Positions 1,530 to 23,970 of a DNA stretch of 32,000 nt are shown one piece after another. The position numbers and the translations under genes were made by a program. Positions within the stretch are counted from its first letter, which is position 1. Each line of letters begins with the position of its first letter. Location: positions 2,175,604 through 2,207,603 of the forward strand of contig NZ_JBHSTI010000008.1 of assembly GCF_042660085.1 (NCBI RefSeq), read 5' to 3'. This DNA is from Longivirga aurantiaca (lineage in GTDB: Bacteria; Actinomycetota; Actinomycetes; S36-B12; CAIYMF01). The notes beneath the pieces were generated by a model. That model ran no database searches. It saw only the letters and a list, made by a program, of their open reading frames with translations, and was not told where the DNA came from.

Positions 1530-4022
<2,493 letters not shown>

Positions 4023-4224
4023 CGATGTCTCTCGTCAGCTCGTCATGGCCCCGGACAAGGAAAGACCCCTCACGCAGGAGGGGTCAGCCGCACCGGTGCC
4101 GCCGGCGGGGATGCCTAGCGGCTGTCGTTCCGGTGCGGCCCCGTAAGCAGGAGGCCGTTTCGCACCCGCTCAGGATAGCCGAGCCGGGCGTGCCTCCTCG
4201 CGCAGGATGGCCGCCGTGGCCAGG
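4023..4224 (-). promoter_or_regulatory. Structured ~200-nt leader upstream of leuS (candidate attenuator)
   Basis: Three consecutive hairpins form on the minus-strand RNA: A (4149-4198, AGGAGGC/GCCUCCU stem), B (10-bp stem 4087-4096/4130-4139) and C (4064-4085, followed by a U-rich tail). The 8-mer CCUCCUGC occurs twice in the RNA (4147-4154 and 4074-4081). The second copy lies inside hairpin C, so one upstream GAGGAGG (4193-4199) could pair with either copy. Confidence 0.4.
4055..4085 (-). terminator. Intrinsic-terminator-like hairpin with U-rich tail
   Basis: The minus-strand RNA reads GACCCCUC-CUGCGU-GAGGGGUC followed by UUUCCUUGU: a perfect 8-bp GC-rich stem, a 6-nt loop and a U-rich tail. 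It sits 140 nt after the methyltransferase stop and only about 40 nt before the leuS ATG. Confidence 0.5.
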
Positions 4225-4843: not shown

Positions 4844-6112
4844 CTACCCGCGGGCGTCCCGGGCGGCGTACCAGCCGCGAAGACCCGTGGCGTCCTGCCC
4901 GTTGCGCAGCAGCGCGGCCATGACCTGCATGGGCTCGTCGACGTGCCGGAAGAACCGCTGGTAGCCCTCGCACAGGTAGTGCAGGCCCGGCTCGCCGTCC
5001 GGCGTCGTGAGGAACCGGTCCTTCGGGCAGCCGCCGTTGCAGGCGAACCGCACGTCGCAGGAGCGGCAGTACGCCGGCAGCGTGTCGAGCTTGGCGCGGC
5101 CGAACGCCTTCTGCTGCGGCGAGTCGACCATCTGCAGAAGCGTCCTGCCCTCGGCGATGTTGCCGAGCTTGTGCGCGGGCTCGACGTAGTGGTCGCAGGA
5201 GTAGAGGTCGCCGTTGTGCTCGAGCGCGAGCGCCTCGCCGCAGACCTGCGCGTGCACGCAGGCGCCGGTCTGGTGCATGCCGAGCCAGTGCGCGAGCGCG
5301 GTGTCGAAGACGGGCACGAAGACGTCGCCGACGTCCTTGCGCGCCCACTCGTCGAAGACCTCGACGAGGAACTGGCCGTACTGCGCGGCGCCGACCGACC
5401 GGGTCGTGACGAGGTCGCCCTCCTGCTTGTACAGCGGCCGGTCGCGCGCCCGCGAGCCCCAGCCCGCCTCCGCCAGGGGCAGCAGCTCCGGCGTCACCCG
5501 CTCGACGATGGGGATGAGCTGGATGTACTGCGCGCCCAGCTCGTCGCGCAGGAAGCGGTAGACCTCGAGCCCGTGGTCGGCGTTCGCGGCGTTGATGGTC
5601 GTGAGCGCGTTCCACTCGACGCCGTGCTTCTGCAGGGTGCGTAGCCCCGCGATCACCCGGTCGTACGTCGGCTTCCCGCCCTTGTCGACGCGGTAGGCGT
5701 CGTGCATCTCGCGCGGTCCGTCGATCGACACCCCGACGAGGAACCCCTGCTCGGCGAAGAACGCGGCCATCTCGTCGTCGACGAGGGTGGCGTTGGTCTG
5801 CACCGTGTTGAGCACGTGCTGGCCCGGCACGGCGTACCGGCGCTCGAGCTCGACGACCCGACGGAAGAAGTCGGTGCCCATGAGCGTGGGCTCGCCGCCC
5901 TGGAACGCGACCACGACCTCGTCAGCACCCCGGTGCGCGGCGAGCAGCTGCGTGACGTAGGCCTCGAGCACCTCGTCGGGCATCCGGAACTCGCTTCCGG
6001 GGTACAGCGACTCCTTGGACAGGAAGAAGCAGTAGTCGCAGTCGAGGTTGCAGATCGCGCCCGTCGGCTTGCTCATCACGTGGAAGACACGCGGAGCCTG
6101 CGGACCGGTCAT
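4844..6112 (-). CDS. Anaerobic sulfatase-maturating enzyme (radical SAM/SPASM, AslB/AtsB/ChuR family)
   Basis: 422 aa. The radical-SAM motif is CNLDCDYC, followed by GGEPTL. Auxiliary-cluster cysteines are GACVHAQVC...SCDHY, YCRSCDVRFACNGGCPKDR and LHYLCEGY. A strong SD (GGGGAGGGGGG) precedes the ATG, which lies 40 nt downstream of the sulfatase stop. Confidence 0.9.
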   Translation of the reverse strand: MTGPQAPRVFHVMSKPTGAICNLDCDYCFFLSKESLYPGSEFRMPDEVLEAYVTQLLAAHRGADEVVVAFQGGEPTLMGTDFFRRVVELERRYAVPGQHVLNTVQTNATLVDDEMAAFFAEQGFLVGVSIDGPREMHDAYRVDKGGKPTYDRVIAGLRTLQKHGVEWNALTTINAANADHGLEVYRFLRDELGAQYIQLIPIVERVTPELLPLAEAGWGSRARDRPLYKQEGDLVTTRSVGAAQYGQFLVEVFDEWARKDVGDVFVPVFDTALAHWLGMHQTGACVHAQVCGEALALEHNGDLYSCDHYVEPAHKLGNIAEGRTLLQMVDSPQQKAFGRAKLDTLPAYCRSCDVRFACNGGCPKDRFLTTPDGEPGLHYLCEGYQRFFRHVDEPMQVMAALLRNGQDATGLRGWYAARDARG

Positions 6113-6152
6113 CGACCCCCCTCCCCTGCGGGCAGCGCCCGGCGTCCGTCGC

Positions 6153-8504
6153 TCAGTCGAGCATGAACCACCCTCTCACCTCGGCCTCGTGGTCTCGGTA
6201 CGGCGTACCGCTGAGGTCGATGACCACGCGGTCGATCGTGCCGCCGGTGAACCGGAACGGTGCGACGTACGCGCGGGTCACCGGGGATCCGTCGTCGCGG
6301 CCGACGCAGTGCCCGTCCCCCGTCGCGTTGAAGAAGCCCGGCTGTGTCACGAGCGGTGACGTGCCGACCTCCTCGCCGTCGACGTACAGCCGCAGCGTCC
6401 CGGCCGCGCCGGGGCGCGGTGGGGCGCTCTTGCCCTCGGCACTGAACTCGGCGGTGAAGACGTGCGCCCCCGGCGTGATCGCGCGATCGGCCACCACCGT
6501 GGTCGTCTCTATGTCCAGCCAGTTGTAGGCGTAGGCCAGGCGGCCGCCCTGCACGTAGAGGCTGTGGCCCCCGGACACCCCGCCGTGGGCGTAGAGCACG
6601 CCCTCGGCGTCCGCGGATTCGAGCGTCACGCCGGCAGACACCGTGTACGAACGGCCGGGCAACCGGGGACCCGACAGCTCGGGCACCGGCGCCGTGTCCG
6701 GGTAGAACACGTAGCGGTCGCGCGGGGGCGCGCCCGACGGCCGCGGCGACAGCGTCTGCTCGAGCGCGTTGCGGTCGTCGAGGGGCAGGCCGTGGTACTG
6801 GTCGGCGAGCTCGAACCACCGTGCGACGAGCTCCTGAACCTTCTCCGGGTGCTCGGCCGCGACGTTGCGGGCCTGCGCCCGGTCCTCCGCGACGTGGTAG
6901 AGCTCCCACTCGTCTTCCTCGAACTTGCCCCAGCCCGACAGCGGCGGGTGCAGGGTGCACGCCAGCCAGCCGTCCTCGTAGACCGAGCGCTGGCCGAGCA
7001 TGGCGTAGAACTGCGTCGACTTCGCCGGCGCTGCCGGGTCGGTGAGCGCTGCGGCGAAGCTCTCGCCCTCGAGGGGCGACTGCGTGTACCCGGCCACCTC
7101 CGCCGGCGGCTCGAGCCCGATGAGGTCGTAGATCGTGGGGACGACGTCGACCGCGTGGACGTACTGCTGGCGCGGCACGGAGTCGGCGGGGATCCGCGCG
7201 GGCCAGGACACGATGCACATGTCGGCGATGCCGCCCTCGTACCCCGCCCACCGCTTCCAGTAGGGGAACGGGGTGTCGAAGGCCCAGGCCCATCCGGTGT
7301 TGTAGTGGTTGTGCGTCTCCGGGCCGCCGAGCTCGTCGATGTGCTGCAGCGACAGCTCGGTCGGCGTGGCGACGCCGTTGAAGAACTGCCACTCGTTGTA
7401 CGTCCCGTTGGGGCCGCCCTCGCCGCTGGCGCCGTTGTCGCTGACCACGACGACGATCGTGTTGTCGAGCTGCCCGCTCTCCTCGAGGAAGTCCAGCAGA
7501 CGGCCGACCTGGCTGTCGGTGTACTCGACGTAGCCCGCGAAGACCTCGGCCATGCGGACGAAGAGGCGCTTCTCGTCGTCGCTCAGGGTCGCCCACGGGC
7601 GGACGGTGTCGAGGAGCGGCCAGGGCTGCCCGTCGGGGCCGGTCCGCATCGGCTCGCCGTGCGGGTTGATGGGCGAGAGCTCGGTGCCCTCAGGAAGGAG
7701 CCCCAGCTCGACCTGGCGGGCGAGGATCCCCTCGCGGATGGCCTCGTAGCCCTCGTCGAAGACGCCCTTGTAGCGGTCCGCCCACTCCGGCCACACGTGG
7801 TGCGGGGCGTGCGCCGCGTCCAGCGAGAAGTACAGGAACCAGGGCTTGTCCGGGTCGATGGTGGTGGAGTCCTTGATGAACTCGATCGACCTGTCGGTGA
7901 GGTCCCAGGCGATGTGATAGCCCTCGGCCGGCGTCGACGGCGGCTCGACCGGGTGGTTGTCGTGCACGAGGTCGGGGAACCAGCTGCTCGCCTCACCGCC
8001 GAGGAAGCCGTAGAAGCGCTCGAACCCGCGGCCCAGGGGCCAGCGGCGCTTCCACGCGCTCATACCCGTCTCCTCGCCGGGGGTCAGGTGCCACTTGCCC
8101 ACGCAGTACGTGTTGTAGCCCTGCTCGACGAGCACCTCGGAGATGAGCCCGTTCTCGAACGGGATGCGTGTGGAGATGCCGGGGAATCCGGAGCTGAACT
8201 CGGCGATGGTCGCCATGCCGTTGCTCGTGGCGTTGCGGCCCGTGAGCAGGGAGGCTCGCGTCGGCGAGCACAGGGCGGTCGTGTGGAAGTTGGCGAGCTT
8301 CACGCCCCGCTCTGCGATGCGGGTCATCGCCGGGGTGCGCACGGGGCCGCCGAAGGACTCCATCGTCCCGTAGCCCACGTCGTCCCAGCAGATGACCAGG
8401 ACGTTGGGCGAACCCTTCGGCGCCTGCGGCGCCAGGAACGGGGCCCAGTCCGGCTCGGCGTCCCTGATGTCGAGAGCGACCTTCCCCTTCCACTCCACGG
8501 CCAT
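6153..8504 (-). CDS. Arylsulfatase, large AtsA-like type, Cys-type (formylglycine) active site
   Basis: Sulfatase signatures are NVLVICWDDVGYG, the formylglycine motif CSPTRASLLTGR, GKWHL and VVVSDNGASGEGG. A C-terminal extra domain is present. ATG 8504 (MAVEWKG) is preferred because GGAAGGGGA lies 6 nt upstream; the ORF-track start at 8555 adds an Arg-rich 17 aa. No signal peptide is visible. Confidence 0.9.
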   Translation of the reverse strand: MAVEWKGKVALDIRDAEPDWAPFLAPQAPKGSPNVLVICWDDVGYGTMESFGGPVRTPAMTRIAERGVKLANFHTTALCSPTRASLLTGRNATSNGMATIAEFSSGFPGISTRIPFENGLISEVLVEQGYNTYCVGKWHLTPGEETGMSAWKRRWPLGRGFERFYGFLGGEASSWFPDLVHDNHPVEPPSTPAEGYHIAWDLTDRSIEFIKDSTTIDPDKPWFLYFSLDAAHAPHHVWPEWADRYKGVFDEGYEAIREGILARQVELGLLPEGTELSPINPHGEPMRTGPDGQPWPLLDTVRPWATLSDDEKRLFVRMAEVFAGYVEYTDSQVGRLLDFLEESGQLDNTIVVVVSDNGASGEGGPNGTYNEWQFFNGVATPTELSLQHIDELGGPETHNHYNTGWAWAFDTPFPYWKRWAGYEGGIADMCIVSWPARIPADSVPRQQYVHAVDVVPTIYDLIGLEPPAEVAGYTQSPLEGESFAAALTDPAAPAKSTQFYAMLGQRSVYEDGWLACTLHPPLSGWGKFEEDEWELYHVAEDRAQARNVAAEHPEKVQELVARWFELADQYHGLPLDDRNALEQTLSPRPSGAPPRDRYVFYPDTAPVPELSGPRLPGRSYTVSAGVTLESADAEGVLYAHGGVSGGHSLYVQGGRLAYAYNWLDIETTTVVADRAITPGAHVFTAEFSAEGKSAPPRPGAAGTLRLYVDGEEVGTSPLVTQPGFFNATGDGHCVGRDDGSPVTRAYVAPFRFTGGTIDRVVIDLSGTPYRDHEAEVRGWFMLD

Positions 8505-8637
8505 CGTGCATCCCCTTCCAGGTCCCCGGCGCGGAATCGCCCTGCCGCGCACCACCGCCTCGCCGAAGGCGCGCAGATAGCCCGAACCTAGCCACCGCCC
8601 GGCAGCGAAGGGCCGTCAACGGGAAGATCCGCGGCGA

Positions 8638-9369
8638 TCAGGCCCAGCGCGCGGCGAGCTCCGCCGCGAGCGCGCGGCCGATGGCGTCGTGGACCTCCCA
8701 GCCCCAGTGCATGCCGTCAGGGTTGCCGGTGCCCGCTGCCAGGGACGGCGCCACGATCGCGTCGAGCTCGACGAGGCCGGTGCCGTGGGCGGCCGACCAC
8801 CGACGGGCGGCCGAGACCGCCGGGTCGTGCTGGCGGTGCGAGGGGTACGACGGCGCCGCGTGCGGCGACGGCCCGAGCAGCACGACCGGGATGTCGGGCC
8901 GGTAGTGGTGCACGCCGTCGACGATGCGCCCGAGGTAGTGGTCGGTCGCGGCCTGCGGCAGCTGCCGAAGGCGTCCGTCGGTCGCGCGGATCACCCACGG
9001 CGCCGCCGCGTTGTACGCCGTACGCACCCGCCGGCGCAGCGATCCCGGGCGCACGAACGGGATGCCCTCGCGGAGGTACGTCGGCAGCGCCGCCGGGAGG
9101 TGGTCCATCTGCCCGACGCCGAGCACGAGCGCGTCGGCGCGTGGCATGAGCTCGCCCCAGGTGTTCGGGTCCTTGGTCAGCGACCACCACGCGTCGCGCG
9201 CCGTCCAGCCCAGGCGGGCCACGAGATCGGCGCGCACGTCCTCGCGGAGAGCCTCGGTGAGCGCAGCTGCCATCACCTGCGGGTACAGCCGCGGGTCGCT
9301 CGGCCGGTGCGCCTGGTCGGGGCCGTGGAACGCCAGCGAGTCGCCGAACACCAGGACGTGCCGCATCAT
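8638..9369 (-). CDS. SGNH/GDSL-family hydrolase
   Basis: 243 aa with block I VLVFGDSLA and block V NPDGMHW (DxxH). The start lies 4 nt after the stop of the upstream aminotransferase-fold gene. Confidence 0.8.
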   Translation of the reverse strand: MMRHVLVFGDSLAFHGPDQAHRPSDPRLYPQVMAAALTEALREDVRADLVARLGWTARDAWWSLTKDPNTWGELMPRADALVLGVGQMDHLPAALPTYLREGIPFVRPGSLRRRVRTAYNAAAPWVIRATDGRLRQLPQAATDHYLGRIVDGVHHYRPDIPVVLLGPSPHAAPSYPSHRQHDPAVSAARRWSAAHGTGLVELDAIVAPSLAAGTGNPDGMHWGWEVHDAIGRALAAELAARWA

Positions 9370-9373
9370 CGGC

Positions 9374-10732
9374 TCACTGGCCCAGCTCGGTGAGCACGGC
9401 GTCGAGCTCGGTCACGAAGCGGTCGGCGTCCTCGATCGAGAAGCAGAGCGGCGGCCGGATCTTCAACGCGTCGTTGTAGATGCCGGCGGTGCCGACGAGC
9501 ACGTGGTGCTCCTTCAGCCCGTTGACGACGGCGAGCGTGAGATCCTCGGCCGCAGCGTACGACTCGAGGCCGAACTCGAGCGCGACGAACAGTCCGGCAC
9601 CGCGGACGTCGCTGATGGCGAGGTGCTGCGACTGCAGCGCGCGCAAGGACTCCTGCAGGTGCGCGCCGACGACGCGCGCGTTGTCCTGCAGCCCCTCGTC
9701 GCGCACGATGTCGAGCACCGCCTGCGCGGCGGCGATGGCGACGGCGTTGCCGCCGAAGGTGTTGAAGTAGCGCATGTCACGGCCGAACTCGGCGACGACC
9801 TCGGGGGTCAGCACGGTGGCCGCGACCGGGAACCCGTTCCCCATCGGCTTGCCGATCGTCATGACGTCCGGCACGAACGGCGAGGCGGCGGTCCCGTGCC
9901 GCTCGAAGCCCCACATCGCATCGCCCGTGCGGCCGAACCCCGGCTGCACCTCGTCGGCGAGGTAGACGCCGCCCGCGGCCGCGACGACGGCGCGCGCCGG
10001 CGCGAGGAAGCCGACGGGGTCGGCGAGCACGCCGTCCGAGGCGAAGATCGAGTCGGCGACGAACGCGGCGAACCGCACCCCGTTCGCCGCGAGGTCGTCG
10101 ATTCCCGCCTGCACCTGCGCGGCGAACCACTCCCCCAGTGACGCGTAGCCCGACCAGTCGACGCGGCGCGGGTCCGGCGCCGGCACCCACCGCACCCAGT
10201 CCGGCAGCGCATCGACCCCCACGAGCGACGGCGAGATCGACGCGATCTCGGTCGAGACGCCGTGGTACGCGTTGCGCGTCACGATCACGCCCGTGCCGCC
10301 CGTGTGCTTCTTGGCGATCCGCAGGGCGAGGTCGTTCGCCTCGGAGCCGGTGCACGTGAAGACCACGTGCCCGAGCTCGTCGGGCAGCGTCGAGAGCAGG
10401 TCCTCGGCGTAGCGCACGATCGACTCGTGGAGGTAGCGCGTGTGGGTGCTCAGCACGGCGGCCTGCTCGGCGATCGCAGCAGTCACCCGCGGATGCGCGT
10501 GCCCGACCGAGGGCACGTTGTTGTACGTGTCGAGGTACTCCACGCCGTCGACGTCGTACAGCTTCGTGCCCGAGCCGCGCACGATGTGCAGCGGCCGGCG
10601 GTAGAAGAGCCGGTACGACGGGCCGAGCGCGTCGATGCGGCGGCGCACGAGATCACCGGTGACCGGGTCGAGCCGGTCGACGTCCTTCGGATCGAAGTAG
10701 GACGAGGGGCCGATCGTCCTGGGCTCGCTCAT
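9374..10732 (-). CDS. Class-III aminotransferase-fold PLP enzyme (possible amino-alcohol phosphate phospho-lyase)
   Basis: 452 aa from ATG 10732 (MSEPRTIG). Motifs are TGSEANDLALR, DEVQPGFGRTG and the PLP-lysine context TIGKPMGNGFP. The ATG overlaps the kinase TGA (ATGA). The 81-aa upstream extension in the ORF track is Arg/Pro-rich and overlaps the kinase gene. Confidence 0.9.
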   Translation of the reverse strand: MSEPRTIGPSSYFDPKDVDRLDPVTGDLVRRRIDALGPSYRLFYRRPLHIVRGSGTKLYDVDGVEYLDTYNNVPSVGHAHPRVTAAIAEQAAVLSTHTRYLHESIVRYAEDLLSTLPDELGHVVFTCTGSEANDLALRIAKKHTGGTGVIVTRNAYHGVSTEIASISPSLVGVDALPDWVRWVPAPDPRRVDWSGYASLGEWFAAQVQAGIDDLAANGVRFAAFVADSIFASDGVLADPVGFLAPARAVVAAAGGVYLADEVQPGFGRTGDAMWGFERHGTAASPFVPDVMTIGKPMGNGFPVAATVLTPEVVAEFGRDMRYFNTFGGNAVAIAAAQAVLDIVRDEGLQDNARVVGAHLQESLRALQSQHLAISDVRGAGLFVALEFGLESYAAAEDLTLAVVNGLKEHHVLVGTAGIYNDALKIRPPLCFSIEDADRFVTELDAVLTELGQ

Positions 10733-11784
10733 GACTCCCCCTGACCCGGGTTCGGCGGCTCGGCAGCGACGAGACGGCGCAGTGCTGCGATCGCGTGGCC
10801 GTTGGCACGCAGCGTGTGGTGGGCGTTGTCGGGGTTGGTCGCGGCGAGCCATGAGTTCACGAGCATCCGCTGCGCCATCCGCGCCCGCACCAGGTGCGGC
10901 AGCAGGTCGATCTCGTCGGCGGTCAGCGGGCGGGTGCTCACGTAGCCGTCCGCGAGGTCGTACGCCGGACGCCACGGGTCGACAGCCGGATCCGCGAGGG
11001 CCTCCACCGAGGGGACGGCGTAGGCCATGGCGACGGCGAGGTCGGCCACCACCGCGGTGCTCACCATGTCGCCGAAGTCGAGGATGCCGCTGACCCAGCC
11101 CTCGTCGTCGACGACGACGTTGTCCATGTTGGCGTCGTTGTGCACCACCTGGTGCCGCACGCGCGCGAGTCCAGGCTCCGTCACGGTGGCGTACCGGTCG
11201 AGCTCGGCCTCGACATCAGCGCGGGCCTCGGCGTCGTCGATGTGCGCCAGGTGCGGTCGCAGGGTCGCGAGCCTCTGCAGGTCCCACGCCAGCACCCGGT
11301 CGGCGCCGGGGTGCGAGAACCGCTCGAGCGCCTGCGACAGCCGGCCGATGGCGGCGCCGACTGCGCGACGCTGCTCGGGCGTCGTCCGGTCGTAGTCGAG
11401 CGTGCGGCCCGGCAGGAACGACAGCACGCGCACGAGCCGGGGCTCGCCGTCGGCGCCGTCGATCCAGGACGACGCCGAGCCGTCGCGGTCGAGCACCACC
11501 CGGGGCACGGGGAAGCCGGGGTCCACGGCCGCGACGTGCTGGAGCGCCGCGAGCTGCATCGCGATGACATCGAGGTCGTCGGCGGGGTTCGCGATCTTCA
11601 GCACGTACCGCTGCTCACCGACCGAGACGCGGAACGTGTCGTCGCGCTCGGTGTCGAACCGACGGATACCCGTGACCTGCAGGCCGTAGCGCTCGATCGC
11701 CAGGTCGGCGGCGCGCTCGACGCCGAGAGGCGTGAACGTCGCGGTGATCGCGTCGTCGGTGCGCAGCTCGTCCACGCGCCGCAC
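10729..11784 (-). CDS. Aminoglycoside-phosphotransferase-fold (APH/choline-kinase-like) kinase
   Basis: 351 aa with a GTG start. It has the catalytic loop VVHNDANMDNVVV (HxDxxxxN), the Mg-binding ILDFGD and a nucleotide-binding Lys context (YVLKIANP). It is translationally coupled to the downstream class-III enzyme. Confidence 0.85.
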   Translation of the reverse strand: MRRVDELRTDDAITATFTPLGVERAADLAIERYGLQVTGIRRFDTERDDTFRVSVGEQRYVLKIANPADDLDVIAMQLAALQHVAAVDPGFPVPRVVLDRDGSASSWIDGADGEPRLVRVLSFLPGRTLDYDRTTPEQRRAVGAAIGRLSQALERFSHPGADRVLAWDLQRLATLRPHLAHIDDAEARADVEAELDRYATVTEPGLARVRHQVVHNDANMDNVVVDDEGWVSGILDFGDMVSTAVVADLAVAMAYAVPSVEALADPAVDPWRPAYDLADGYVSTRPLTADEIDLLPHLVRARMAQRMLVNSWLAATNPDNAHHTLRANGHAIAALRRLVAAEPPNPGQGES

Positions 11785-11801
11785 GCTATCCGACGCCCGG
11801 A

Positions 11802-13373
11802 TCAGTCCGCGGGGTCGGTGCGGGTACGCCGGAACCGGGCGCGCAGCACCTCGATGTCGGTCTGCACTACATCCGGGTCGGGATCGCCCTTCTCGCCGTA
11901 CCAGCCCGCGAGCCGGCCGGCGCGGCTGACCGCGCGCAGCCGTCGCTCGACCTGGCTGCGCACCGCGCGCGGAACCACGATGAGGATCTGGTCGCCGCTG
12001 CGCAGCCGCATCTCGCGCGCAGGCACCAGCGGCTCACGGTCACGCGCGATCAGGCTGACGACCGCTCCCTTGGGCAGCCGCAGCTCGCCGATCGTGACCC
12101 CTTGCAGCTTGGACTCGAGCGGCACCTCGAACTGCAGCACGTCGGCCGAGATGTCCTCGAGCGGCGCGGCCTCCACCTCGATCTCGGCCGTGTGCTCGCG
12201 ATCCACCACGCCCAGCCGGCGGGCCAGGTAGGGCAGCGGCGGCGCCTGGATCAGGGTGAAGACCACGACGAGCAGGAAGACCACGTCGAAGATCTCCTGC
12301 GCCACCGGCAGCCCCTGGCTGAGCGGGATCGTCGCGAGCACGACCGGCACCGCGCCCCGCAGCCCGGCCCAGGACAGGAACGCCTGCTCGCGCACGCCGA
12401 CCCGGAAGAGGAACGTCGACAGCACCACCGACGCCGGCCGCGCGATCACGAGCAGCACGGTGCCGAGCACCAGCGCGGTGGGCAGCGCGTCGAGGAGGCG
12501 GTCCGGGCTCGCGAGCAGGCCGAGCAGCACGAACAGCCCGATCTGCGCGATCCAGCCCAGGGCCTCGACAAATCCGACGGTCGTCGAGCGGTGCGGCAGC
12601 TGGGCGTTCCCGAGCCAGAGCGCGGCGACGTAGATGGCGGCGAAGCCCGACGCCTCCACCGCTCCGGCGGCGGCGAAGGCCAGCATCGCCAGCGCGACGG
12701 TCGCGACCGGGTAGAGGCCCGACGACGGCAGTGCGACGCGGCGCAGCATCTCCTGGCCGAGCCGCGCGATCGCCAGGCCGATGAGCACTCCCCCGACGAG
12801 CTCGTAGACGACCAGGGCTGCGGTCGACCAGGGGTTCAGCGCGTCCCAGCCGTCGGAGGAGAGCAGCGTCACGAGCAGGATGGCCAGCGGGTCGTTGAGC
12901 CCCGACTCGGCCTCGAGCGTTGACGACACACGTCGCTTGATCGGCAGCCGGCGCAGCACCGAGAAGACCGCGGCAGCATCGGTCGACGACACGACCGCGC
13001 CGAACAGCAGGGCCGTGCGCAGGTCGAGGCCGAGCAGGAAGTGCAGGAACCCCGCGGTGACGGCGACGCTCACGGCGACGCCGACCGTCGCGAGCATCAG
13101 CGAACGGCCAAGCACGGGTCGGATCGCGTCCCATCGGGTCGTGAAGCCGCCCTCGGCCAGGATGATCGCCAGCGCGACGAAGCCGAGCACGCGGGTCAGC
13201 GCCGCGTCCTCGTACTCGATGCCGAACCCCGCCTCGCCGAGGACGAGGCCGAAGCCGAGGTAGATCAGCAGGGTCGGGAGGCCTGCCCAGCGCGAGAAGC
13301 GCACCGAGACGACGGCGAGCAGCAGCACCCCGGTGCCGACGAGCAGCACCAGGTAGAGGTCGTGCGTGCTCAT
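11802..13373 (-). CDS. K+/H+ antiporter, CPA1 (NhaP2/CvrA-like) with C-terminal TrkA-C/RCK_C domain
   Basis: 523 aa. The multi-TM exchanger core carries VSSTDAAAVFSVL and ESGLNDPLAILL. The C-terminal soluble domain (GVTIGELRLPKGAVVSLIARDRE...SGDQILIVV) is typical of TrkA-C. Confidence 0.85.
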   Translation of the reverse strand: MSTHDLYLVLLVGTGVLLLAVVSVRFSRWAGLPTLLIYLGFGLVLGEAGFGIEYEDAALTRVLGFVALAIILAEGGFTTRWDAIRPVLGRSLMLATVGVAVSVAVTAGFLHFLLGLDLRTALLFGAVVSSTDAAAVFSVLRRLPIKRRVSSTLEAESGLNDPLAILLVTLLSSDGWDALNPWSTAALVVYELVGGVLIGLAIARLGQEMLRRVALPSSGLYPVATVALAMLAFAAAGAVEASGFAAIYVAALWLGNAQLPHRSTTVGFVEALGWIAQIGLFVLLGLLASPDRLLDALPTALVLGTVLLVIARPASVVLSTFLFRVGVREQAFLSWAGLRGAVPVVLATIPLSQGLPVAQEIFDVVFLLVVVFTLIQAPPLPYLARRLGVVDREHTAEIEVEAAPLEDISADVLQFEVPLESKLQGVTIGELRLPKGAVVSLIARDREPLVPAREMRLRSGDQILIVVPRAVRSQVERRLRAVSRAGRLAGWYGEKGDPDPDVVQTDIEVLRARFRRTRTDPAD

Positions 13374-13572: not shown

Positions 13573-14154
13573 TCAGGGGCGCTGGCCAGCGTCGGACGGC
13601 TTGCCTGCGTGGGCGGGCTTGCCGTGACCCGCCTTCTTGTCGGCAGCCTTGGCCTTGCCGTTCGCGCCGGGCTCGGTGGCCGGTGCGTCGGTGCCGTCGT
13701 CGGTGGCCTCCGGCGTGCCCTTCTTGTCGAGGTAGACCTGGGCGCAGTAGTCCTCGACCGTGCCCTCGCCGGCAGCGGCGACGAGCGCAGCAGCAGCGGG
13801 GTTGCCCGCGTCGGCCTTGTCCTGGGTCAGGCCGCCGTGCGCCCACGCGGTGCACAGGCCGTAGGCGGCCGGTCCGGTGGCGTCCGGGCCGGTGGTCGCC
13901 GACTCCTCGGCGGCGGGGCTCGTCGCGTCGTCCGCGACCTCGTCGGTGGTGTCGTCGGACGCCGTGGTCGGGTCATCGGCGGCCGTCTCGTCACCGGTCG
14001 ACGCGCTAGTGGGGTCGGTGCTGGTGACCGTGGGCTCGTCCGAGCCTGCGAGCGCGACGGGCAGGGCAACCGTTGCGGCGGCACCGCCGGCGAGAAGGAC
14101 GGCGCTCACGGCCGCGGCGGCAGCCTTGGAGGTGAGCAGGGCGGTGAGCAGCAT
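13573..14154 (-). CDS. Secreted hypothetical protein (signal peptide, acidic Thr/Asp-rich linker, 2-Cys core, Lys/His-rich tail)
   Basis: 193 aa. GAGGAA lies 5 nt before the ATG. The signal peptide ends in ALA-GS. The core reads AAYGLCTAWAHGG...VEDYCAQVYL and the C-terminus reads GKAKAADKKAGHGKPAHAGKP. GC3 is high in this frame. The function is not recognised. Confidence 0.6.
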   Translation of the reverse strand: MLLTALLTSKAAAAAVSAVLLAGGAAATVALPVALAGSDEPTVTSTDPTSASTGDETAADDPTTASDDTTDEVADDATSPAAEESATTGPDATGPAAYGLCTAWAHGGLTQDKADAGNPAAAALVAAAGEGTVEDYCAQVYLDKKGTPEATDDGTDAPATEPGANGKAKAADKKAGHGKPAHAGKPSDAGQRP

Positions 14155-23204: not shown

Positions 23205-23277
23205 TGGAGCTGAGGGGACTCGAACCCCTGACCCCCTGCATGCCATGCAGGTGCGCTACCAGCTGCGCCACAGCCCC
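23205..23277 (-). tRNA. tRNA-Ala (anticodon GGC)
   Basis: A manual cloverleaf of the 73-nt reverse complement gives acceptor GGGGCUG/CAGCUCC with the Ala identity pair G3:U70. The D arm is GCGC-AGCUGGUA-GCGC and the anticodon arm is CCUGC-AUGGCAU-GCAGG. The T arm is AGGGG-UUCGAGU-CCCCU and the discriminator is A. CCA is not encoded. Confidence 0.95.
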
Positions 23278-23331: not shown

Positions 23332-23970
23332 CTAGGACTCGTCGCCGAACACGTCCTCGGGCAGCGAACGGGCGTTGTGCTCGGTCAGGCGCCAGCGGCC
23401 GTCGGCCAGCTCCTCGAGCACCGACCAGGCGCAGTTCACGAGGCCGCCGAGCGCCGTCCAGTGCTCCTGCGGCAGGTGCAGCAGGGTGCCGATGCCCGCG
23501 CGGATCGCACCGCCGTGGCTCGCCACCACGAGGGTCCCGCCCGGCGGCAGAAGATCGGCGTGCCGGAGCACGGCGGCGCTCACGCGCACCGAGACGTCGG
23601 TGCGCGTCTCGCCGTCGCCGGCGGGGACGTCGTCGCCGGAGAGCCAGCGGCGGAAGTGGACGCCGTCGGTCGCGATGATCTCGTCGCGCACGAGGCCCTG
23701 CCAGCGGCCGGCGTACGTCTCGCGCAGGTCCGGGTCGGTCTCCACCGGCAGCCCGACGATCTCGCCCAGCTTCTCGGCCGTCACCCGGGCGCGCGCCAGG
23801 TCGCTCGCGACGATGCGCGCCGGGGCGAGGGTGGCGAGGTCGCGCGCAGCGCGCTCGGCCTGGGCGATGCCGACCTCGTCGAGGGGGACGTCGGTCGATC
23901 CCTGGAAGCGCGACTCCGCGTTCCAGGCGGTGCGGCCGTGCCGCCAGAGGACGACGCGGCGCGCGGTCAC
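23332..23970 (-). CDS. Histidine phosphatase (phosphoglycerate-mutase-like) family protein, GpgP-like by position
   Basis: 212 aa from GTG 23970, which overlaps the rsfS TGA (GTGA). It has the catalytic motif LWRHGRT.WN and the C-terminal SHGG motif. It sits directly downstream of rsfS, as the mycobacterial glucosyl-3-phosphoglycerate phosphatase does. Confidence 0.85.
   Translation of the reverse strand: MTARRVVLWRHGRTAWNAESRFQGSTDVPLDEVGIAQAERAARDLATLAPARIVASDLARARVTAEKLGEIVGLPVETDPDLRETYAGRWQGLVRDEIIATDGVHFRRWLSGDDVPAGDGETRTDVSVRVSAAVLRHADLLPPGGTLVVASHGGAIRAGIGTLLHLPQEHWTALGGLVNCAWSVLEELADGRWRLTEHNARSLPEDVFGDES

Follow-up and report, generated by a model that had tools for sequence, protein, structure and literature searches.

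The 32,000-nucleotide window analysed here, a stretch of the Longivirga aurantiaca genome (contig NZ_JBHSTI010000008.1), encodes an APH-fold kinase (P0002), a class-III-fold pyridoxal phosphate (PLP) enzyme (P0001) and an SGNH-fold protein (P0003) in direct succession. The kinase and the PLP enzyme correspond to an established and widespread bacterial enzyme pair, a kinase and a phospho-lyase, as follows from the conserved pairing with a kinase, the existence of fusions of the two and the membership of the PLP enzyme in a clade of phospho-lyases. Judging from their sequences, these two enzymes quite likely act as a catabolic unit that degrades a small primary amino alcohol in two steps, and the SGNH-fold protein beside them, a homolog of the octanoyltransferase OctT, would keep a job of its own. 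The general route, in which an amino-alcohol kinase is followed by an O-phosphate phospho-lyase, is known from the biochemistry of Pseudomonas and Erwinia in the 1970s.

Affiliation of the PLP enzyme

The PLP enzyme matches the Pfam family Aminotran_3 (PF00202, 2.2e-67), and the databases name its relatives 'aspartate aminotransferase family protein' and '4-aminobutyrate aminotransferase-like'. Among solved structures in the PDB, the best match is human ethanolamine-phosphate phospho-lyase, ETNPPL (AGXT2L1; 6TOR, 332.7 bits), an enzyme of the same class-III fold. In the full-length alignment of the two, the PLP lysine K295, which lies in the shared GKPMGNG motif, aligns with K278 of ETNPPL. 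The second match is A1RDF1 of Arthrobacter (Paenarthrobacter) aurescens (5G4I/5G4J, 320.7 bits over residues 20-450), an actinobacterial class-III homolog that is a phospholyase and not a transaminase. All other PDB matches score 141 bits or less, and they comprise racemases, GABA, acetylornithine and putrescine transaminases, and dialkylglycine decarboxylase. A gap of about 190 bits therefore separates the phospho-lyases from any transaminase. The segment D260-E-V-Q263 is also present, with D260 and Q263 lying within the sequence ADEVQ.

Phylogenetic placement agrees with these scores. The tree was built from 32 family members, the class-III paralogs of the genome itself and 15 paralogs located near family members elsewhere. 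The genome encodes 11 such paralogs outside the window's gene, which NCBIfam assigns to gabT, rocD, argD, hemL and several omega-transaminase groups. The lyase family is a single clade to which none of the transaminase paralogs belongs; its stem measures 1.68 changes per site and has a support of 100 in the Shimodaira-Hasegawa-like approximate likelihood ratio test (SH-aLRT). A family member from Paenarthrobacter (L075), which has an adjoining kinase, shares the two top PDB matches of the PLP enzyme. It was considered as a characterised anchor for the tree and rejected, as it scores only 356 bits against A1RDF1 and is not its ortholog; A1RDF1 lies in a different branch of the family than P0001. 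To our knowledge, neither a physiological partner nor a pathway has been established for A1RDF1.

Family membership and the catalytic residues are direct observations, and from them the assignment of the PLP enzyme to the phospho-lyase clade, rather than to a transaminase clade, appears well supported. The label 'aminotransferase' is likely wrong for this protein. An earlier note on this DNA, made from the letters alone, had raised the possibility of such a misannotation and proposed a phylogeny and an inspection of the active site as checks. Its suspicion was fair, with the family standing separate from the transaminases in the tree, the characterised lyases placed by score, and K295, D260 and Q263 all present. 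The main value of the analysis lies in this correction of annotation, as thousands of bacterial proteins of the lyase clade are labelled aminotransferase.

Conserved pairing of kinase and lyase

The kinase matches the Pfam family APH (PF01636, 2.6e-28) and has its motifs intact, with the ATP-binding Lys63, the catalytic loop H215-N-D217...N222 (HxDxxxxN) and the Mg-binding D236-F-G. In a homolog scan that took one genome per species, 593 relatives were returned and 80 loci kept. By tblastn, 71 of these 80 loci have a homolog of the window's kinase as the gene just upstream of the lyase. They belong to Actinomycetota and Pseudomonadota and are spread over Streptomyces, Pseudonocardia, Arthrobacter, Mycolicibacterium, Leifsonia, Pseudomonas, Variovorax, Cupriavidus, rhizobia and Rhodobacterales. 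The pairing is thus directly observed across two phyla.

Fusions of the two functions are also found. The kinase and the lyase match opposite ends of the fused NCBIfam models NF004799 (PRK06148, 1015 amino acids) and NF004800 (PRK06149, 972 amino acids). Against NF004799, a model that is itself uncharacterised, the kinase scores 231.7 bits over the kinase domain (positions 10-326) and the lyase 456.3 bits over positions 587-1010. Unlike in these models, kinase and lyase are separate genes in the window and there is no middle domain, and with partial coverage the scores lie far under the full-length cutoff of 1128 bits. One fused protein of 749 amino acids (P0121) is among the homologs.

Six genomes of the same genus (G003, G005, G006, G009, G016 and G019) have the split pair and, in addition, another copy of the lyase that is 45-47% identical. 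These second copies sit in open frames of 1015-1019 amino acids, which matches in length PRK06148, the fused model of kinase, middle domain and lyase. The genome of the window has the split pair and is without a second copy of fused length. The earlier note's description of an APH kinase and phospho-lyase pair that is adjacent or fused in bacteria holds for the 71 paired loci as well as for the fused models, P0121 and these long frames. A well supported subclade of the lyase family (L019, L038, L057, L066 and L079), with members in Cellulomonas, Bifidobacterium psychraerophilum and a metagenome-assembled genome of Mycobacterium, has no adjoining kinase homolog; its members may rely on a different kinase or import a substrate that already carries the phosphate.

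Within the window, the two genes overlap. The TGA of the kinase and the ATG of the PLP enzyme share the letters ATGA at 10732-10729, as the earlier note had it, and GGGGGAG lies 4 nucleotides 5' of the PLP enzyme's ATG. In the gene calls of relatives (L001, L003, L004, L005 and L006), the same junction is a 4-nucleotide overlap or a gap of 1-2 nucleotides. Because the junction is conserved in this way, the overlap is not due to chance. The kinase and the PLP enzyme are translationally coupled. A longer open reading frame of 533 amino acids listed for the PLP enzyme, starting at GTG 10975, was rejected as an over-extension into the kinase gene, since a start at ATG 10732 fits the ortholog lengths of 447-456 amino acids.

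In vertebrates, too, an APH-fold kinase supplies a phospho-lyase with its substrate: ETNPPL and the 5-phosphohydroxylysine phospho-lyase PHYKPL (AGXT2L2) are accompanied by the hydroxylysine kinase HYKK (AGPHD1). The vertebrate genes are unlinked, whereas those of the window are bacterial, separate and translationally coupled. Veiga-da-Cunha et al. are said to have found, in 2012, the clue to the functions of AGXT2L1, AGXT2L2 and AGPHD1 in bacterial kinase-lyase fusions. P0001 is an outgroup to the vertebrate ETNPPL and PHYKPL paralogs, and their specificities are therefore not transferable to it. In the pathway for aminoacetone and 1-amino-2-propanol of the Rhodococcus/Mycobacterium microcompartment (RMM), an APH-fold (S)-1-amino-2-propanol kinase (PDB 6EF6, the M. 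smegmatis entry) is likewise combined with a class-III PLP lyase labelled 'aminotransferase'.

Proposed reaction and substrate

The chemistry proposed for the pair is deduced from the family and residue assignments. With ATP, the APH-fold kinase would phosphorylate the hydroxyl group of an amino alcohol, and the class-III-fold PLP enzyme would then eliminate phosphate from the phosphorylated product in a 1,2-elimination. Hydrolysis of the enamine or imine would yield an aldehyde, ammonium and inorganic phosphate. The substrate would most likely be ethanolamine, giving acetaldehyde, with 1-amino-2-propanol or another amino alcohol possible. Two things favour ethanolamine: O-phosphoethanolamine is the substrate of both high-scoring solved relatives, ETNPPL (6TOR) and A1RDF1 (5G4I/5G4J), and no other amino alcohol is as generally available. 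Set against all alternatives together, it would still have less than even odds.

No EutB, the B12-dependent ethanolamine ammonia-lyase, was detected in the window's genome, which is 96.3% complete. The evidence points to a kinase-dependent and B12-independent route from amino alcohols to aldehyde, ammonium and phosphate. Such a route would let uncultured aquatic actinomycetes draw nitrogen from ethanolamine or related head-group amines, and the same DNA is present in estuary and groundwater metagenomes.

At the more distant loci, the pair often stands in an amine-catabolic setting. Its flanks there include GntR regulators (31 loci), PotA- and PotD-type ABC transporters (29 and 19 loci), SDR dehydrogenases (15 loci), HDAC-like amidohydrolases (10 loci) and aldehyde dehydrogenases (9 loci); none of them adjoins the pair in the window. 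Loci of the amino-2-propanol (RMM) microcompartment contain a set of GntR, SDR, phosphotransferase and aminotransferase genes, and their GntR and SDR neighbours resemble those of many distant loci of the pair (PMC4207490). Unlike the RMM loci, the window locus is without shell proteins, SDR, permease or GntR genes, and its kinase is remote from 6EF6. A literature search on the physiology of bacterial ethanolamine kinase and phospho-lyase returned no match.

The OctT homolog and its relation to the pair

The product of the third gene of the series matches the NCBIfam model for diglucosylglycerate octanoyltransferase, NF043016, from end to end (positions 1-223 of 224) with 248.8 bits, 1.2 bits under the equivalog cutoff of 250. 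The Pfam match, to Lipase_GDSL_2, is weak (24.9 bits, under its cutoff). The protein has the same length as mycobacterial OctT (Rv2418c), and the catalytic triad described for that enzyme (Maranha et al. 2015, PMC4555173) is present, with Ser11 in GDSL and Asp218 and His221 in DGMH. The GDSL motif is full in the window's protein, whereas only DSL is noted for mycobacterial OctT (PMC4555173). Some close relatives of the gene carry the OctT name at NCBI and JGI, and relatives from the same order score 231-247 bits against NF043016. OctT-like proteins from sister families that are without the pair score 231-240 bits, compared with the 248.8 bits in the window. As the pair-less families score no better on the model, there is no sign that the function of OctT changed after the pair arrived.

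The genome also encodes GpgS, glucosyl-3-phosphoglycerate synthase (416 bits, cutoff 262), so that a glucosylglycerate route exists for OctT. Most likely, the SGNH protein acylates sugars of the glucosylglycerate type, as described for mycobacterial OctT, and has kept this job of its own. The organism of the window is not, as far as we know, a producer of methylglucose lipopolysaccharide.

Gene order supports an older association of octT with other neighbours. The gene order of the window follows the actinobacterial backbone obg-proB-proA-nadD-(LytR-like)-rsfS-histidine phosphatase ... octT ... leuS-degV. M. tuberculosis has degV (Rv2417c), octT (Rv2418c) and gpgP (Rv2419c) in this order (PMC4555173). 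The octT gene of the window likewise has a gpgP-like phosphatase on one side and degV on the other, and differs in that the kinase and lyase pair has been inserted upstream in this lineage. In sister families, the order is rsfS-gpgP-octT-leuS-degV (L133) or octT-leuS-degV, with no kinase or lyase. The histidine phosphatase of the window (23335-23970, minus strand) stands at the gpgP position beside rsfS, and its identity as GpgP rests on this synteny; it has no match to a specific GpgP model, and within NCBIfam it comes closest to alpha-ribazole phosphatase, with 110.7 bits and under the cutoff.

A survey of 60 related genomes, which covered the window's genus, its sister genus and other families, separated the distributions of the two elements. 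OctT was detected in 38 of the 60, including all five genomes in each of two other families (f4 and f5). By contrast, the lyase turned up in 25 of 27 genomes of the window's genus and in two of three of the sister genus, and in none of the 33 genomes of other genera and families. Five genomes of the window's genus (G002, G003, G013, G016 and G019), 90-98% complete, have the lyase and no detected OctT. In three loci (L010-L012), the lyase is followed directly by leuS-degV, and in the sister genus (L098 and L108) the pair and octT are divergently oriented. In two metagenome contigs (L001 and L002) whose lyase is 89% identical to that of the window, a 483-amino-acid gene of the Beta-lactamase2 family lies on the opposite strand between lyase and octT (8504-9955 and 5347-6798, respectively, both minus). 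Possible in-frame fusions of lyase and OctT, suggested by long open frames, were rejected; the genes are in different frames or separated, and the frames are artefacts of high GC content.

The synteny history is read directly from these loci, and the functional independence of OctT is deduced from it. Given the distributions of octT and the pair, the ancestral gene order and the orientations, octT is probably a positional neighbour and not part of the kinase and lyase function. The simplest history would be an insertion of the pair just upstream of the older octT: both genes of the pair would have been gained together at the root of the window's genus and its sister genus, would have landed immediately upstream of the pre-existing gene, and the tight spacing would have come afterwards, leaving OctT co-transcribed with the pair by position only. 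The earlier note had correctly placed the start of the SGNH gene 4 nucleotides past the PLP enzyme's stop (TGAgccgATG), and had counted a coupled SGNH hydrolase as part of the candidate module. The gene is rather a homolog of an OctT-type sugar acyltransferase at its ancestral position beside leuS-degV. Tight spacing alone can thus mislead, as the 4-nucleotide coupling of lyase and SGNH gene would stem from insertion beside an older gene and not from a shared pathway.

Weighing of the alternatives

A genuine omega-transaminase, standing by chance next to an unrelated small-molecule or antibiotic phosphotransferase, would fit the database names of the relatives and a Pfam family made up mostly of transaminases. 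It is nevertheless extremely unlikely, given the bit-score gap in the PDB, the separate clade of the lyase family and a kinase that adjoins the lyase at most loci in two phyla, with fusions in addition, which a chance neighbour does not explain. A module of three genes would have the SGNH enzyme de-esterify or acylate an amino-alcohol compound, for instance a lipid head group or an amino alcohol that is acylated or sulfated, and the pair then phosphorylate and cleave the freed amino alcohol. The 4-nucleotide gap, with no terminator predicted between lyase and SGNH gene, speaks for it, as do the tight co-directional arrangement in most genomes of the window's genus and in L004, L009 and L013, and the lipid-related genes nearby (degV, and plsY in relatives). 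The SGNH gene is, however, an OctT match of ortholog grade that lies beside leuS-degV in families without the pair; lyase and OctT each occur without the other, the former in five genomes of the same genus and the latter in all other sampled families. They are also divergently oriented in the sister genus, and in L001 and L002 a gene on the opposite strand comes between them. At 73 more distant loci no OctT-like gene is a neighbour, and the sulfatase adjoins in the window's genome and one other only. Such a module is accordingly considered very unlikely.

Another substrate for the kinase and phospho-lyase pair is a possibility of a different order, though an unlikely one. Candidates are (S)- or (R)-1-amino-2-propanol, which would yield propionaldehyde, and 5-hydroxylysine, which would yield 2-aminoadipate semialdehyde; an amino alcohol not described so far is a further option. 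The lyase family covers at least three substrates (those of ETNPPL, PHYKPL and the RMM aminopropanol-phosphate lyase), an aminopropanol kinase is among the solved relatives of the kinase, SDR and GntR genes are frequent at the distant loci and also occur in amino-2-propanol loci, and P0001 is about equally far from ETNPPL and A1RDF1. The activity of these two enzymes, both on O-phosphoethanolamine, favours ethanolamine instead, as do its general availability and the undetected EutB, and near the pair in the window's genome there is no SDR, microcompartment shell or lysine-catabolic gene. It is also quite unlikely that kinase, lyase and OctT make up a true operon of the window's genus with a new role, for example in the turnover of an acylated glycolipid or solute that bears an amino alcohol, or that the amino alcohol of the pair is new as a phospho-lyase substrate.

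Several observations weigh against an amino-alcohol catabolic pair that is independent of OctT. The characterised phospho-lyases were not rows of the tree, and their position relative to the clade was inferred from bit scores. The best solved relative of the kinase, 6EF6, is distant and the match weak (E 2e-8, 37 bits), and the next, the homoserine kinase 2PPQ, is also weak. The substrate of the clade in this lineage is itself an assignment by inference, and no amino-alcohol transporter, aldehyde dehydrogenase or regulator adjoins the pair in the window's genome. The junction of lyase and octT is tight (4 to about 15 nucleotides) in most genomes of the window's genus, no intrinsic terminator is predicted anywhere from the kinase to the sulfatase maturase, and co-expression of lyase and octT might conceivably bring some functional benefit in that genus.

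Gene layout and flanking genes

The window has a GC content of 72%, and the three genes were assigned by the frame with high GC content at third codon positions (GC3), in which they are consecutive, tightly packed and all on the minus strand (Table 1).

Table 1. Positions of the kinase, the PLP enzyme, the OctT-like gene and their neighbours in the window.
Feature	Position	Strand	Length and ends	Model or location
APH-fold kinase, putative amino-alcohol kinase	10729..11784	-	351 aa; GTG 11784 -> TGA 10729	PF01636
Class-III-fold PLP enzyme, putative O-phospho-amino-alcohol phospho-lyase (ethanolamine-phosphate phospho-lyase type)	9374..10732	-	452 aa; ATG 10732 -> TGA 9374	PF00202
OctT-like SGNH-fold acyltransferase	8638..9369	-	243 aa; ATG 9369 -> stop 8638	NF043016
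K+/H+ antiporter with TrkA_C domain	11802..13373	-	523 aa	NF003716, 617 bits (cutoff 355); Pfam Na_H_Exchanger and TrkA_C
Sulfatase	6153-8555			between octT and methyltransferase-leuS genes
anSME (radical-SAM sulfatase maturase)	4844-6112			between octT and methyltransferase-leuS genes

The sulfatase and maturase genes are found beside octT in the window's genome and in one other (G025) only. In the closest relatives compared (L089, L090 and L096), whose OctT is 91-94% identical, leuS lies within about 0.8-1 kb of octT, which marks the insertion as very recent; in L001 and L002, octT is followed by a small methyltransferase gene and leuS. Sulfatase and maturase thus came in later, at the level of the strain, and tell nothing about the substrate of the pair. 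They are the variable portion of the region, whereas antiporter, kinase, lyase and octT are older genes common to the genus. A sulfated or esterified substrate, at which the downstream sulfatase operon had seemed to hint in the earlier note, was rejected on these grounds.

On the other side, the antiporter gene ends 17 nucleotides upstream of the kinase start and may be co-transcribed with it. This adjacency is kept in the closest relatives (L001-L003), and a GGDEF gene takes the place of the antiporter in L004. It is conceivable that the antiporter, as a K+/H+ and possibly NH4+/H+ exchanger, disposes of the ammonium released by the lyase. Upstream of the antiporter lies an open reading frame of 193 amino acids (13573-14154, minus strand) that has no Pfam or NCBIfam match. 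Frames of the same length lie upstream of the antiporter in L001 (3601-4182) and L002 (444-1025); tblastn gave no match of at least 100 amino acids in those loci.

A search for RNA evidence over positions 8400-12000 yielded none. A scan for sigma-70 promoters gave no match, which, like the terminator prediction, is weak information in an actinomycete of 72% GC, and the Rfam scan returned nothing but a tRNA at 23205-23277. The sole terminator-like hairpin between positions 4000 and 14800 lies outside the three genes, at 4064-4085 on the minus strand and about 30 nucleotides upstream of the leuS start. It has an 8-bp stem with 6 G-C pairs, followed by TTTCCTTG, and could be the end of the upstream transcription unit or a leader element of leuS.

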